A stretch of 64,000 bases of DNA from Candidatus Poribacteria bacterium (GTDB taxonomy: Bacteria; Poribacteria; WGA-4E; WGA-3G): positions 1,695,050-1,759,049 of the forward strand of contig OZ220722.1 in the NCBI GenBank assembly GCA_965116815.1. Reading direction: 5' to 3'. The translations under genes and the position numbers were made by a program. Of the stretch, positions 25,389 to 46,370 are shown one piece after another. The notes below the pieces were generated by a model. That model was not told the DNA's origin. It worked only from the letters and a program-made list of their open reading frames with translations, and made no database searches. How positions within the stretch are numbered: the first letter of the stretch is position 1; the number at the start of each line of letters is the position of its first letter.

Positions 25389-25733
25389 TTAAACTTCGTA
25401 GAAGGGCATTGAAATGTTAATTTCTGCGGCAGGCTTGTTAGCAGGTCTACCTCGGACAACAATTTCAATGTCGCAATCCAGTTTTCTAATCAGTGAAAAC
25501 AGCTGCTGAATAGAAAAGTCATCAAGCAAGCCATCTTGAAGGGCAGAAAACTCAGACTTGTTGAGGTCTAGCATCTTGGCTGCCTTACGTTCCGTGATCC
25601 CGCTTTTGGTTATAATACCATTGATTATTAAGGCAAGGCGGGCTTTCGCAAGGTATTCCTCTGGGTTGGGAACCTCCAAATCTTTAAATACATTGCCGCT
25701 ACCTTTTTCAATTTCAATTTTTTTCTCAGTCAT
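25389..25733 (-). CDS. HTH (XRE-family) antitoxin of a type II TA pair
   Basis: Its start overlaps the upstream toxin's stop by 4 bp (ATGA). A helix-turn-helix-like segment reads ITERKAAKMLDLNKSEFSALQDG. Confidence 0.6.
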   Translation of the reverse strand: MTEKKIEIEKGSGNVFKDLEVPNPEEYLAKARLALIINGIITKSGITERKAAKMLDLNKSEFSALQDGLLDDFSIQQLFSLIRKLDCDIEIVVRGRPANKPAAEINISMPFYEV

Positions 25734-26074
25734 TTTTTCTCCATTTGTGCCTGTGCTTTTACTATGTTTAAGCGTCTACGGATTAAATCAATTTCCTTTT
25801 TTGGAGTCTTTATTCCACGCTTTGATTTCTTCTTGAAGCAGTGGAGGACATAAATCAAATCTCCCAGGTTCACCACGTAAACCGCCCGATAGGTATCACG
25901 AGCGTGATCTCTCACAATTTCATACACTCCCGAAAATCCTCGCAATGGTTTAGTTTTGTCAGGAGTTTCTCCACCCTGTGCCTCTTCCAGTGCATAGCCG
26001 ATTTTCCTCCGAACATCGGTCGGAAATTCTAAGAGCCGCTTCTTCGAGTCCCCAACCCAGAAGACGGGGCGCAT
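25730..26074 (-). CDS. RelE/ParE-superfamily toxin (Gp49/HigB-like 'addiction module killer')
   Basis: The KPLRGFSGVYEIVRDHARDTYRAVYVVNLGDLIYVLHCFKKKSKRGIKTPKKEIDLIRRRL pattern is typical of Gp49-like toxins. The ATG at 26074 is preferred over the TTG at 26095. Confidence 0.6.
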   Translation of the reverse strand: MRPVFWVGDSKKRLLEFPTDVRRKIGYALEEAQGGETPDKTKPLRGFSGVYEIVRDHARDTYRAVYVVNLGDLIYVLHCFKKKSKRGIKTPKKEIDLIRRRLNIVKAQAQMEKK

Positions 26075-26275
26075 TTGTTCGTCTTGCCTAAGCAAATTCT
26101 ACCAAACTCGAGAAGATTTTGCAACAGTTTTTTGCTATCACGGTACCTATGCAAATCTACAGGGATTTTGGGATAAATGCGGATTGGTTGCGTCTACATT
26201 TACTTGTAATGAATCTTGACACGTCGCACAGGCGCGAAAATCTTCACGACACACAAACTCGGGCAGATGCTACGT

Positions 26276-27094: not shown

Positions 27095-28198
27095 CTATTT
27101 TTCCTTTGTTTTGTGAATAATGGATTCTACGACCTTCTGCATTTCAGGAGTAGGTATTGCACCGATCAAGAAGAAGTGGATTTTCACCCCCGACCATCTG
27201 AAGGCATCCGTCGATACGAACCGGTGTTTATAGACCTTCTGACCGCCAAGTTCAATCTCGGTTTCTCTTCTACGTTCTCTATCGCTGAGACGAGGTGGGT
27301 CGCCTGTTTTTTCAAATAGCGTGAAGGTTACCAATCCATCTGTATATTCGAGAAGAATTGAATCCTTCTCTTTGCTTCTTATACTACGAACCTCCTGCAA
27401 CTGGAACCCGGGTGGTAGGTATTCAGGTTGAATGGGTTTCGTTTTAAGCGTTTTTTCTGCATCGGCAAGTGAAATTGGGTCGCTCCGCGAGGGTCGCTGC
27501 TTTATCTCTTTTTCAAAAACCTGCCATTTGCGTTCCACGGCTTCAGGATCGAAACTAATTCGGTTATAGACAAACATCTCCCGAAGCACGCCTTCAGCAT
27601 CCAGGTCCTCTACCCGCAAGATAGCACCGTTTTCACGAGCAAAGAAGATGCGTTTTGTGGGTCTATCAGCAAATTTAGGCGTGATCGTTAGGATGTTAGT
27701 TTCATGGCCCGCTATTTTTTCTTCGGATTCCGATTCTTCCAAGTTGTAGTTTTGGGCGATTAGCTCAATCTGTTTTTTCGAGAATTGGCTTCTAACTTGC
27801 CGCCATTCGCTCCGATTTCGATTTCTTTCCCGACGGTCTCCGCGATTTTCGTTATCATCTCTTCTTCTGTTGTCGTTCCGGCGTTCGTCTCTGCTGCGCG
27901 AACCTTCATGCGAATGTCGTTCACCGACCGCGGATACCACCCGCCGATACGATACATTCGCGGATTTATGAATAACCACCTCTTCAAAAGTCCGTGTGCC
28001 TCTCGACGAACTAAACGTCTTCACGCGGAGCCCCACGTAACTGACTTTACGCTCGGCTTCTGCAATGCGTTCAAGCGTGCTGACATCAGCAAAAAGTGTG
28101 TGAGGTGTCCACAACAAAAAGGCTAAAACTGCAGACCATAAAAGATGATGGTTAGATCGTCCGTCCCTATGAAGAATTAGATGCTTATGCGTTTGCAT
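27095..28198 (-). CDS. RseB/MucB-like (LolA-fold) periplasmic sigma-E regulatory protein with an Arg/Asp/Glu-rich low-complexity insert
   Basis: Third gene after the ECF sigma and anti-sigma genes. ATG at 28198, 21 nt after the anti-sigma stop. N-terminal signal/TM. The overall MucB_RseB-like pattern is a moderate match. Confidence 0.5.
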   Translation of the reverse strand: MQTHKHLILHRDGRSNHHLLWSAVLAFLLWTPHTLFADVSTLERIAEAERKVSYVGLRVKTFSSSRGTRTFEEVVIHKSANVSYRRVVSAVGERHSHEGSRSRDERRNDNRRRDDNENRGDRRERNRNRSEWRQVRSQFSKKQIELIAQNYNLEESESEEKIAGHETNILTITPKFADRPTKRIFFARENGAILRVEDLDAEGVLREMFVYNRISFDPEAVERKWQVFEKEIKQRPSRSDPISLADAEKTLKTKPIQPEYLPPGFQLQEVRSIRSKEKDSILLEYTDGLVTFTLFEKTGDPPRLSDRERRRETEIELGGQKVYKHRFVSTDAFRWSGVKIHFFLIGAIPTPEMQKVVESIIHKTKEK

Positions 28199-28218: not shown

Positions 28219-29172
28219 TCAATTCTCCGCAAAGAAGTCAAGAACCTGTTCTTCAGCCTCTTCAATGGTTTCTGGAGGTAGAGATTCCAGACTGAGCGGG
28301 CTGCCGACATTTGACTTCAATGGGTTGTCTTCAAGTTGCTCAGTATAAAGTCCGTAGTAGAAATCAAGAGTTTCATCATATTGGGGCGTAGTTGGATAAA
28401 AGTAGAGTGCTCCCAAAATCAGTGTGAGTGTCAAGATACCCGTCGCCCCTGCTGTAACGGGGCGGAAGAACCAGCGTCCAAAATCCGGTAACCATTGCCC
28501 AATATCTGGTAGCCATCGTGGGCGCGTGGATTCTTCGGACTCCGTCTTTGCTGGTTGCTCGCGTATTTTAGCCATCACTGCGTCTTCAATAGATGACGGA
28601 GCTGGATGCTCAAGACCTTTGATCATCTCGCGACTTTTCTGAAATGCTGTGAGCATTTCGGAACACTCGTTGCAGGCGTGAAGGTGTGTTTCAATTCGCT
28701 CACGCATAGCGGGGACTAATTCATTATCTAAGTAGGCTGATAACTCGTCTTGAAATCCGGCGTGTATTTTTGCCATTACTGCGTCTTTAAGCGTTGATGG
28801 CACCGGATGCGCGGAGTCTGTGATCATCTGACGGTTCTTCTGGAACGCCGACAGCATTTCGGAACACTCGTTGCAGGTGTGAAGGTGTGTTTCAACCCGT
28901 TCGCGCGCAGCGGGGGCTAATTCATTATCTAAGTAGGCAGATAACTCATCTTGAAATCCGGCGTGTATTTTTGCCATTACTGCGTCTTTAAGCGTTGATG
29001 GCACCGGATGCGCGGAGTCTGTGATCATCTGACGGTTCTTCTGGAACGCCGACAGCATTTCGGAACATTCACTACAAGAACGGAGATGTATTTCAACCTG
29101 TTCACGCCTACTTGGCGATAATTCATTATCTAAATAGGCTGATAGTTCTTTTTGGATGCGGCTGTGGTTCAT
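28219..29172 (-). CDS. Transmembrane anti-sigma factor with three tandem zinc-finger (ZAS, HxxxCxxC) N-terminal domains
   Basis: Three 65-aa repeats ELSAYLDNEL..E.HL..C.EC...L.AFQK.R.MI......P.PS...DAVMAKI.AGF. A TM segment follows (ILTLTLILGALYFY). The gene lies immediately downstream of the ECF sigma gene. Confidence 0.75.
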   Translation of the reverse strand: MNHSRIQKELSAYLDNELSPSRREQVEIHLRSCSECSEMLSAFQKNRQMITDSAHPVPSTLKDAVMAKIHAGFQDELSAYLDNELAPAARERVETHLHTCNECSEMLSAFQKNRQMITDSAHPVPSTLKDAVMAKIHAGFQDELSAYLDNELVPAMRERIETHLHACNECSEMLTAFQKSREMIKGLEHPAPSSIEDAVMAKIREQPAKTESEESTRPRWLPDIGQWLPDFGRWFFRPVTAGATGILTLTLILGALYFYPTTPQYDETLDFYYGLYTEQLEDNPLKSNVGSPLSLESLPPETIEEAEEQVLDFFAEN

Positions 29173-29202: not shown

Positions 29203-29823
29203 TTACCACTCGACTCGCTCCAGTTCTTTTTTCAGTGCTTTTCGAGCCTCGTGTAACCGGGATTTAACGCGTCCCAATGTACATCCAAGGATTTCTGCTA
29301 TTTCTTCATACGGTAAGTCTCGTAGTTCTCTCAGCACCAGAATTTCTCTATGGCTGTCTTTGAGTTTCGCGAGGGCGGCGTGCACAATTTCTTTTTCTTC
29401 TGCGCGTAGTGCTGCCTCTTCTGGTGTTGCTGTATCAAGAGGAACCCAGGGTTGTGAATCGTCAATCTCCATTGGGTCAGTTTTTCGACGTTGATACTGA
29501 TCAATATGGTTAAGACATTTATTTTTAACAATGCGGTAGAGCCATGTCGAGAATCGGGATCGGAATTGAAATTTCCCGATATTTTCCCATGCGGAGAGGA
29601 ACGCATCTTGTGCAACATCTTGGGCATCTTGGTGATGACCGAGTATACCGTAAGCGATGTTATAGACCCAATGTTGGTATTGAATTATGAGGGTCCCCAT
29701 CGCATCAGCATCGCCATTTTGACAGCGTAAAACGATCTCACGTTCCTGTGCGAGATCCAATTCCTCGGTTTTGCCCATTTCCGAATAGGTTTGCATAGTC
29801 GTCGTAGGGGTTGCAACGGGCAT
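29203..29823 (-). CDS. ECF (sigma-24/RpoE-like) RNA polymerase sigma factor
   Basis: Sigma-2 region (IQYQHWVYNIAYGILGHHQDAQDVAQDAFLSAW) and sigma-4 region (EILVLRELRDLPYEEIAEILGCTLGRVKSRLHEARKAL). The ATG at 29823 has a GGAGA RBS. Confidence 0.85.
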   Translation of the reverse strand: MPVATPTTTMQTYSEMGKTEELDLAQEREIVLRCQNGDADAMGTLIIQYQHWVYNIAYGILGHHQDAQDVAQDAFLSAWENIGKFQFRSRFSTWLYRIVKNKCLNHIDQYQRRKTDPMEIDDSQPWVPLDTATPEEAALRAEEKEIVHAALAKLKDSHREILVLRELRDLPYEEIAEILGCTLGRVKSRLHEARKALKKELERVEW

Positions 29824-29997
29824 ACTTTTTCTCCAAACCGTAAAAATAAAATGCTTTCGTTCAACTCGGAACCGTTTAATTTCCCAATGATCTTGCTTGA
29901 ATTTCACTTGGAACAAGCGAAATTCTAAGTATTGGAAGAAACTAAGTGGCTTTCTTATTCACTTAGACAGCATAGAGAAAAAAAGGTTCGTTTTGTT

Positions 29998-46119: not shown

Positions 46120-46370
46120 TAAAGTTTGGACAATCTTCTGTAGAATAGGCTGTTAGCCTGTTCCATCTTCCGTAGAATAGCCTGTTGGTCTCCTGTTCTG
46201 TCTTCCGTAGAATAAGTTGTCTCTTTGCTCCAGCGGAGCAATATTGCCTCACAGTGAGAGTAGCAGCCGATTGTTGGCAATCCTGCACTCCAGCGGAGTG
46301 CTATGTCTATAGAAAAAGACGTATGCGAACTACCGCACTCCAGCGGAGTGCTATGTCTATAAAAGGGACA
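46120..46370 (+). repeat. Two families of short direct repeats: 3 copies of TCTTC(C/T)GTAGAATA at ~35-bp spacing, then 2 perfect and 1 degenerate copy of palindromic GCACTCCAGCGGAGTGCTATGTCTATA
   Basis: 46130/46166/46201 share TCTTCYGTAGAATAR. 46285..46311 and 46335..46361 are identical 27-mers, each with an internal 7-bp inverted repeat (GCACTCC/GGAGTGC). A degenerate copy lies at ~46226. Confidence 0.6.

Follow-up and report, generated by a model that had tools for sequence, protein, structure and literature searches.

The window analyzed here is a stretch of 64,000 nucleotides from a Candidatus Poribacteria genome (assembly GCA_965116815.1, contig OZ220722.1, positions 1,695,050 to 1,759,049). 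It contains a sigma-E/RseA/RseB-like envelope-signaling operon composed of a putative promoter, a gene for an extracytoplasmic function (ECF) sigma factor, a gene for a single-pass membrane anti-sigma factor and a gene for an RseB-like protein (Table 1). As a preliminary description of this DNA had stated, the anti-sigma gene lies downstream of the ECF sigma gene and encodes a triplicated zinc domain; the two genes are direct neighbours, and the three copies are complete zinc anti-sigma domains (ASDs). Comparison with related loci indicates that this three-domain architecture is a conserved, selected and copy-number-labile feature of a phylum-wide operon, and a reasonable functional reading is that several sigma molecules may be bound per anti-sigma chain.

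Table 1. Predicted features of the sigma/anti-sigma operon, with coordinates within the window, listed in the direction of transcription
Feature	Coordinates	Strand	Basis
Putative ECF-type promoter (autoregulation presumed), AAAACGAAC-N17-GTCTAA, ~140 nt before the start codon of the sigma gene	29963..29994	-	Conserved motifs
ECF sigma factor gene, start codon ATG 29823, 206 aa (TTG 29916 in the longer mechanical ORF)	29203..29823	-	Pfam, NCBIfam; orthologues called at 206 aa
Anti-sigma factor gene (317 aa), encoding three zinc ASDs, a linker, a single transmembrane helix and a periplasmic tail	28219..29172	-	ORF list, zf-HC2, RsrA model, identical protein P0001
Anti-sigma domain 1 (aa 3-69), 'a' type in both halves; ligands H3, H29, C33, C36	28966..29166	-	Log-odds typing; four predicted helices
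119-nt exact repeat, donor side: domain 1 C-half and first 17 nt of domain 2	28949..29067	-	Longest exact run at offset 201
Anti-sigma domain 2 (aa 70-136), chimera: N-half 'c', C-half 'a'; ligands H70, H96, C100, C103	28765..28965	-	Log-odds -37.9 / +57.0
119-nt exact repeat, recipient side: domain 2 C-half and first 17 nt of domain 3; recent gene-conversion tract	28748..28866	-	Identities to relatives
Anti-sigma domain 3 (aa 137-203), 'c' type, nearest to the membrane; ligands H137, H163, C167, C170	28564..28764	-	Log-odds typing; RsiW alignment
Cytoplasmic juxtamembrane linker (aa 204-237), conserved WLPDIGQ-WLPDFGR-WFF motif	28462..28563	-	Family alignment columns
Single transmembrane segment (aa 238-258, PVTAGATGILTLTLILGALYF)	28399..28461	-	Hydrophobic stretch; AF2 helix 242-257; conserved columns
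Short acidic periplasmic tail (aa 259-317), conserved LDFY.GL.TEQ..DNPLKSN motif	28222..28398	-	Conserved columns Y272, E278, Q279, D282, N283
RseB/MucB-like periplasmic protein gene, likely start ATG 28198	27095..28198	-	Pfam MucB_RseB; orthologues

Two profile models, Pfam zf-HC2 (PF13490; E=7e-31) and the NCBIfam RsrA model (TIGR03988), each match three stretches of the anti-sigma protein. These are the three consecutive units of the preliminary description; each of them has the sequence ELSAYLDNEL and an H-x3-C-x2-C motif. The best match to TIGR03988 covers positions 6-72 of 77, and each unit is therefore likely a whole zinc-binding anti-sigma (ZAS) domain and not a mere zinc knuckle. The ligand set H-x25-H-x3-C-x2-C is found in every unit, with the motif histidines at H29, H96 and H163 and the fourth ligand (H3, H70 and H137) 26 residues ahead of each. 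Among two-unit orthologues, H3 is kept in 43 of 45 proteins and H70 in 40 of 45, the exceptions being mostly variants with a spacing of 66 aa that are read out of register. By their sequence features the units can be assigned to the ZAS class-I ASD family.

An AlphaFold2 (AF2) run on the anti-sigma factor alone, with a family alignment of 43 sequences, gave a model of low confidence (mean predicted local distance difference test score, pLDDT, 47; predicted template modeling score, pTM, 0.21), from which the secondary structure alone was used. Four helices per unit, a transmembrane helix at residues 242-257 and two helices in the tail were assigned by DSSP. Unit 3 aligns to residues 13-74 of RsiW (PDB 5WUQ, chain C) over helices 1-4, including VMAK of helix 4, but this match is weak (E=0.004). 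One hydrophobic segment follows the ASDs, and we infer a single-pass topology with the N-terminus in the cytoplasm and the C-terminus in the periplasm. The linker columns W220, I224, W227, P229, G232, R233, W234 and F235 are near-invariant in the family alignment. It should be noted that the linker motif is itself a mini-repeat kept almost unchanged across the family, whereas the linker of a single-ASD relative (locus L050, see below) differs from it and is longer. By analogy with RseA and RseB, the periplasmic tail presumably receives the signal and binds the RseB-like protein.

The organization of the operon can be compared with several known systems. In E. coli (RpoE-RseA-RseB) and Pseudomonas (AlgU-MucA-MucB) the gene order is the same, i.e., sigma factor, single-pass anti-sigma factor and periplasmic RseB/MucB-like protein. 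RseA and MucA, however, have one ASD without zinc, in contrast to the three zinc ASDs found here, and the operon in the window differs further in the lack of rseC and in a conserved insert rich in R, D, N and E in the RseB-like protein. The anti-sigma factor was rejected as an RseA homologue, its score with RseA_N being 23.7 bits against a cut-off of 24 and with NF041468 37 bits against 165, with no match to RseA_C. The second comparison is with SigW and RsiW of Bacillus subtilis (PDB 5WUQ, 5WUR). RsiW, too, is an anti-sigma factor that spans the membrane once and binds an ECF sigma through a zinc ASD (H-x3-C-x2-C) at its cytoplasmic N-terminus, and the sigma factor of the window scores as SigW/RpoE-like. 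Unlike the protein studied here, with three ASDs (one or two in its relatives), RsiW has one; it also differs in its larger extracytoplasmic domain and in having no partner of the RseB type. The mode of action of the module is presumably that of RpoE-RseA-RseB and SigW-RsiW; in the latter, control of RsiW is exerted by stepwise intramembrane proteolysis.

Two further comparisons concern the domain itself. As in the ChrR-type ZAS domain of Rhodobacter sphaeroides, four ligands of the form H-x25-H-x3-C-x2-C are present in each 67-aa unit, and each unit spans nearly the whole of TIGR03988, the model of RsrA, which is known from Streptomyces coelicolor. RsrA is, however, a soluble single-domain redox sensor, while the window protein is membrane-anchored, contains three units and is not actinobacterial. 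The TIGR03988 score of 112 bits is the sum of three stretches and reaches the cut-off only by summing. Identification of the protein as an RsrA equivalog (the anti-sigma-R of the mycothiol system, partner of SigR) was ruled out by the transmembrane segment, the three units and the occurrence of its relatives only in Poribacteria.

At the DNA level, Tandem Repeats Finder detected one array at 28652-29144 (period 201, 2.5 copies, 88% matches, score 781), the sole large tandem repeat of the window; a short tandem repeat is also present at 46133-46214 (period 32, 2.5 copies, 84% matches, score 104). When offsets from 180 to 219 were scanned, the identity was 0.82 at offset 201 and only 0.19-0.30 at the remaining 39 offsets, so that the repeat is far above chance. 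The period is thus 201 bp, or 67 aa. A period of 195 bp (65 aa) had been proposed earlier, with copies at 28741-28935 and 28936-29130; at that offset the two intervals are only 20% identical, as against 82% at offset 201, and this register was dropped.

The identity between units depends on where they are taken to begin. For units begun at the first zinc-ligand histidine it is 84% (1 versus 2), 82% (2 versus 3) and 70% (1 versus 3), and for units begun at ELSAYLDNEL 88, 76 and 68%, respectively. The identity of ~95% reported earlier for units 1 and 2 is seen when 28652-28866 is compared with 28853-29067 (10 mismatches in 215 nt), a segment out of register with the units, and does not hold for the true units (84-88%). 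Inside this segment lies an exact tract of 119 nt (28748-28866 identical to 28949-29067), the longest exact run at offset 201. The earlier picture of units 1 and 2 as recent copies beside a diverged unit 3 is too simple, because unit 2 is mosaic in structure, with ~92% identity to unit 3 in the 5' half and full identity to unit 1 in the 3' half.

The distribution of the array was studied in related proteins (designated P) and loci (designated L). The best 120 homologues form one family; the few that are named and all genome records encoding them belong to Candidatus Poribacteria. Judged by the number of intact H-x3-C-x2-C motifs, 101 of them have two motifs, 13 have three (always with a spacing of 67 aa) and six have one intact motif, at least five of the latter having the length of a two-unit protein. 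With one genome taken per species, two units were found at 47 of 50 loci, three units at two (L001 and L002) and a single unit at one (L050, 189 aa). The two-domain array is the standard form across Candidatus Poribacteria. L050 is flanked by orthologous sigma and RseB-like genes, and many more single-unit relatives of ~175 aa occur among the cluster representatives searched. Upstream of the sigma gene of L050 (2183-2941, minus strand) there is also an ORF made of many tandem copies of a ~17-aa motif (…FADSEQHTAALFKQSEEHTAALFKQVLAR…) with a hydrophobic end, which is unrelated to the array. Orthologue comparison, which the preliminary description had recommended, has recovered one-, two- and three-unit loci.

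The three-unit genes fall into 13 separate clusters at 90% identity (P0001, P0003-P0011, P0014, P0015 and P0017), P0001 being the window's own protein, and were found both in scaffold-type records and on long contigs of up to several Mb. These data bear on the possibility, raised earlier for a single unit, that a one- or two-unit repeat had been expanded by the assembler. Apart from the 119-nt exact repeat nothing speaks for such an artefact, and that repeat is shorter than ordinary reads. The units differ from each other at 12-32% of positions, a protein identical to the window's (P0001, present in the protein collection, while an exact search of the contig index gave no match) is encoded on a contig of 5.85 Mb, the 12 further clusters consist of diverged three-unit orthologues with exact 67-aa spacing from separate assemblies, and two more three-unit genes (L001 and L002) are present in species-representative genomes. 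For practical purposes an assembly artefact is excluded.

To type the units, position-specific residue frequencies were derived from 100 two-unit proteins and scored as log-odds per half-domain. The first unit (type 'a') and the second unit (type 'c') of two-unit proteins are clearly distinct (mean log-odds +56 versus -50 per half-domain). All 13 three-unit proteins were typed (a,a)-(c,a)-(c,c), the middle unit being a c1+a2 chimera. In the window the N-half of domain 2 likewise resembles domain 3, while its C-half is identical to that of domain 1. Exactly this pattern results when, in an unequal crossover, unit 2 of a two-unit gene recombines with unit 1 of a second copy. The third ASD thus arose by unequal homologous recombination, a1a2-c1c2 giving a1a2-c1a2-c1c2.

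The phylogenetic distribution of unit numbers was analyzed with neighbour-joining trees of concatenated sigma and RseB-like proteins (524 columns, 56 loci, 50 bootstraps). Three-unit genes are scattered over this tree and were monophyletic in none of the 50 bootstraps; under parsimony 6-8 changes of state are needed, the single-unit outgroup accounting for one of them, and on this tree the copy number changed at least five times. In 45 of 50 bootstraps the window's three-unit clade includes the two-unit locus L003, whose protein corresponds to that of the three-unit locus L054 minus the middle unit; in sigma+RseB the two loci are 97.9% identical. The array evolved stepwise: a two-ASD gene (a1a2-c1c2) was fixed in most Poribacteria and then gained a third ASD. 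Single-ASD genes, which exist among orthologues, may be the ancestral form or secondary a1+c2 collapses, both being compatible with log-odds typing. Unequal recombination has repeatedly added or removed the middle unit, and gene conversion has occasionally homogenized parts of the array.

The duplications had at first been considered very recent. This view is contradicted by the relatives: two domains are the norm (47 of 50 loci; 101 of 120 best homologues), and the third unit is common to the nearest relatives of the window. In addition, the N-halves of the middle and last units differ at synonymous sites and at few or no non-synonymous sites (non-synonymous/synonymous differences 0/13 in L052, 0/7 in L054 and 3/11 in L053), which indicates that the third unit is old and strongly constrained. 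The near-identity that had been taken as a sign of recency has its source in a local gene-conversion tract. The C-half of the window's middle unit is 95-97% identical to the unit-1 C-half of its relatives and only 81-83% identical to their middle-unit C-half. Moreover, all 10 mismatches of the 215-nt segment are located within the 96 nt outside the exact tract, for which we calculate a chance of ~(96/215)^10 = 3e-4. Together these two observations show conversion of the middle unit by unit 1 in the window lineage, and in the window only the 119-nt tract is recent. Near-identical C-halves were likewise revealed in L055 and L056 and are lacking in other lineages, a pattern of sporadic concerted evolution.

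It should also be mentioned that synonymous divergence is uneven along the anti-sigma gene. Between the window and L053 or L052, dS is ~0.10 in unit 1, 0.28-0.31 in unit 2 and 1.2-1.4 in unit 3, and for unit 3 it is 0.44 in comparison with L054. Such unevenness points to exchange between lineages by recombination or to differential conversion inside the gene.

Sequence divergence further indicates that all units are under purifying selection. In a set of 37 two-unit loci, every half-domain gave a dN/dS of 0.13-0.22, and both units retain their zinc ligands. For the orthologous middle units of L052, L053 and L054, dN is 0.026-0.039 versus dS of 0.07-0.19, and the chimeric c1+a2 domain is thus maintained by selection as well. 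These values bear on an explanation that would make the third unit neutral copy-number noise, generated and removed by unequal recombination without functional effect. The repeated flips in copy number on the tree, with the two-unit L003 nested among three-unit relatives, are what it would lead one to expect. However, lineages with no more than 75-91% identity in sigma+RseB still have three-unit genes, and the duplicated halves have gained synonymous differences with few or no non-synonymous ones, as noted above for L052 and L054, i.e., they have been retained for a long time under constraint; we consider neutrality improbable. The suggestion of a hyper-variable 'stuttering' region can be kept insofar as the copy number shifts repeatedly, but it does so between lineages, the comparison itself being one between lineages, and imperfect 201-bp units are unlike slipped-strand repeats.

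The remaining parts of the operon are conserved together with the array. Both promoter motifs (GAAC-N17-GTCTAA type), separated in the window by a spacer of 17 nt, are kept in at least 80% of 49 orthologous upstream regions. The sequence AAAACGAAC-N17-GTCTAA is likened by us to the GAAC...TCT promoters of the sigma-E/AlgU type, and it would fit an autoregulated ECF promoter. The sigma gene matches Sigma70_r2, Sigma70_r4_2 and Sigma70_ECF of Pfam and the sigma70-ECF and RpoE/SigW-like models of NCBIfam. It ends 30 nt upstream of the anti-sigma gene on the same strand, an arrangement conserved across the examined loci; the two genes share a frame and are separated by one stop codon and ten further codons. 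The mechanical ORF of the RseB-like gene begins at TTG 28222 and overlaps the anti-sigma stop codon, but its orthologues were called at 364-367 aa, starting ~20 nt past that stop codon. Its product matches Pfam MucB_RseB (PF03888) with 32.1 bits against a cut-off of 22.3, and MucB_RseB_C and the NCBIfam RseB model more weakly. The insert mentioned above is a low-complexity region of ~40 aa (window ~27806-27925, minus strand) in which 31 of 40 residues are R, D, N or E, and was kept in all 12 orthologues inspected, including that of the single-ASD L050. RseB of E. coli and MucB are not known to carry an insert of this kind.

The sigma, anti-sigma and RseB-like genes are adjacent at all 57 loci examined. 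A wider order, DUF4956, CotH/LTD, sigma, anti-sigma, RseB-like, dienelactone hydrolase and short-chain dehydrogenase/reductase (SDR), was seen in six relatives with gene calls. In the window, a Gp49/HigB-like toxin ORF (25730-26095, minus strand; Pfam Gp49, E=6e-23) lies between the dienelactone hydrolase and SDR genes and overlaps by 4 nt an ORF of 114 aa (25389-25733), which by its position is a putative antitoxin. In L053, L054 and L056 the two flanking genes are ~10 nt apart, so that the toxin pair looks like an insertion. At the same position L057 has an HTH_37 gene.

What several ASDs on one chain might do can be judged from the surfaces by which such domains contact sigma factors. For class-I ASDs, a published coevolution analysis describes two conserved interfaces, helix 1 with sigma-4 and helix 4 with sigma-2, helix 2 being mainly structural (PMC7406223). 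In the Poribacteria family the a- and c-type units have the same helix 1 (ELSAYLDNEL), and the helix-4 core VMAKI is common to the consensus of both. Since the single-ASD L050 has the same sigma and RseB-like partners, one ASD would suffice for the sigma factor and the others would be additional sites. The shared helix 1 and helix-4 core, the single-ASD orthologue and the selected chimera together make the same sigma factor the most likely partner of every ASD. A lone sigma gene adjoins the multi-ASD gene both here and in an independent three-ASD family of Melainabacteria (see below), which we also count in favor of valency for one sigma. We give a probability of roughly 0.5 to the reading that each ASD binds one copy of the same co-encoded sigma, which would make the protein a bivalent or trivalent anti-sigma factor.

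Under such a mechanism each ASD would be an independent site for the same sigma factor, and one anti-sigma molecule would hold two or three sigma molecules at the membrane. Co-transcription of the sigma and anti-sigma genes, combined with multiple ASDs, would create an excess of inhibitory capacity, i.e., a tight off-state and a raised threshold. Once RseB-like protection is relieved in the periplasm, a single round of regulated proteolysis would destroy the anti-sigma factor and set several sigma molecules free together. Evolution could then use ASD number as a dial for threshold and gain.

Several points weigh against this reading. The step from domain number to valency is purely inferred, and the AF2 model of the anti-sigma factor alone is weak (mean pLDDT 47, pTM 0.21). 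Not every unit need be a working zinc site, because six of the best 120 homologues lack an intact H-x3-C-x2-C in one unit (e.g., L003/P0002, CNES). The trees are neighbour-joining trees on 524 columns, so gains and losses can be counted only approximately, and the ages of the units are obscured by concerted evolution. Finally, throughout the phylum the a and c types differ consistently in helices 2 and 3 and in the loop ahead of helix 4, which may mean different partners or roles; the N-terminal residues ahead of helix 1 are type-specific as well.

These differences lead to a possible division of labour in which a- and c-type ASDs bind different partners, for example with the membrane-proximal c-type domain reserved for the co-encoded sigma, while the a-type would bind the product of a gene elsewhere, either another ECF sigma or a different protein. 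Two regulons would in that case be under one membrane sensor, and the chimeric third domain would add capacity for one of the partners or create a new specificity. The types are consistently distinct in ~100 two-unit proteins and both are under purifying selection. In addition, helix 4 with its preceding loop, which the same analysis reports as mainly determining the specificity of class-I ASDs (PMC7406223), is type-specific (PSTLKD.VMAKI versus P.SI..AVMAKI). On the other hand, helix 1 is identical and the helix-4 core common to both types, no second sigma gene was found in any examined neighbourhood, where one sigma gene adjoins the multi-ASD gene, and the single-ASD orthologue has the same operon partners. 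A chimera of c1 and a2 that is tolerated and selected is also easier to understand if both halves fit the same sigma factor. We therefore regard two sets of partners as unlikely, although less so than the next explanation.

It could also be supposed that a single ASD, probably the membrane-proximal one, binds sigma and that the rest are accessory domains, serving as zinc/thiol redox sensors, spacers or modules that delay or order degradation of the ClpXP type. Some relatives do lack a cysteine in one unit, and ZAS domains can be redox sensors, as in RsrA and ChrR. Yet all units keep the sigma-contacting helices 1 and 4 with dN/dS of ~0.13-0.22, which a spacer would not require, and zinc is often structural in membrane-bound ZAS domains, as in RsiW. 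Purely accessory roles thus seem rather doubtful.

To assess how far multi-ASD proteins extend beyond Poribacteria, one 67-aa unit was searched against 1.84 billion cluster representatives, which gave 586 matches at E<=0.001. Motifs were counted in 148 proteins new to the analysis that came from the best 150 matches, a ranking that favors multi-unit proteins because their scores add. Within this set, 72 proteins had two motifs, 47 three, five four (P0124 and P0135 among those with four) and one five, so that 125 carried 2-5 motifs in tandem. The units of multi-ASD clusters are spaced by 66-100 aa, and one hydrophobic segment follows them in the examples whose sequences were read. Judged from these matches, multiple ASDs are a widespread anti-sigma architecture that extends to many metagenomic clusters. 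The view that the arrangement is unusual accordingly fails as a statement of uniqueness, but we found no paper describing tandem ASDs in our literature searches, including term searches of two large ECF/ASD classification papers.

The best-defined case outside Poribacteria is a three-ASD family of ~299 aa from Melainabacteria/Obscuribacterales (P0126, P0269, P0276 and P0286), which adjoins a single ECF sigma gene. Its units are longer (~73 aa) and 30-40% identical to those of Poribacteria, and the downstream gene encodes a protein of 176-179 aa without a Pfam match instead of an RseB-like protein. This gene (L058, 4890-5420; L059, 4899-5438) overlaps the anti-sigma stop codon, and its product, given its RseB-like position, may be an unrecognized periplasmic partner. 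An extreme case of the same architecture is P0222 of Laspinema olomoucense, a cyanobacterial 'anti-sigma factor family protein' of 660 aa in which six near-identical ASD-like repeats of ~80-90 aa (ELLSAYLDGE...) without the zinc motif are followed by one hydrophobic segment. Literature searches on the Melainabacteria family, P0124, P0135 and P0222 returned no experimental characterization.

The locus provides a clean example of a domain gained by unequal crossing-over, in which a chimeric but functional domain was generated and concerted evolution then set in. Models of bacterial signaling treat ECF sigma factors and their anti-sigma factors as 1:1 modules, and so does synthetic biology, where they serve as orthogonal parts. 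The operons of Poribacteria form a natural series in which one, two or three complete ASDs are placed on the same membrane anti-sigma factor, all under selection. If each domain binds sigma, stoichiometry would be an evolvable parameter for threshold, buffering and burst size, and the Poribacteria series would supply ready-made alleles for testing this idea. It can be proposed, tentatively and at somewhat less than even odds, that tandem ASDs constitute multivalent anti-sigma factors, that an ECF switch owes its threshold and gain to how many domains are present, that lineages retune this number by unequal recombination (one, two or three domains, with up to at least five zinc motifs in other clusters), and that this may be a general, previously undescribed principle in Poribacteria, Melainabacteria, cyanobacteria and many uncultured groups.

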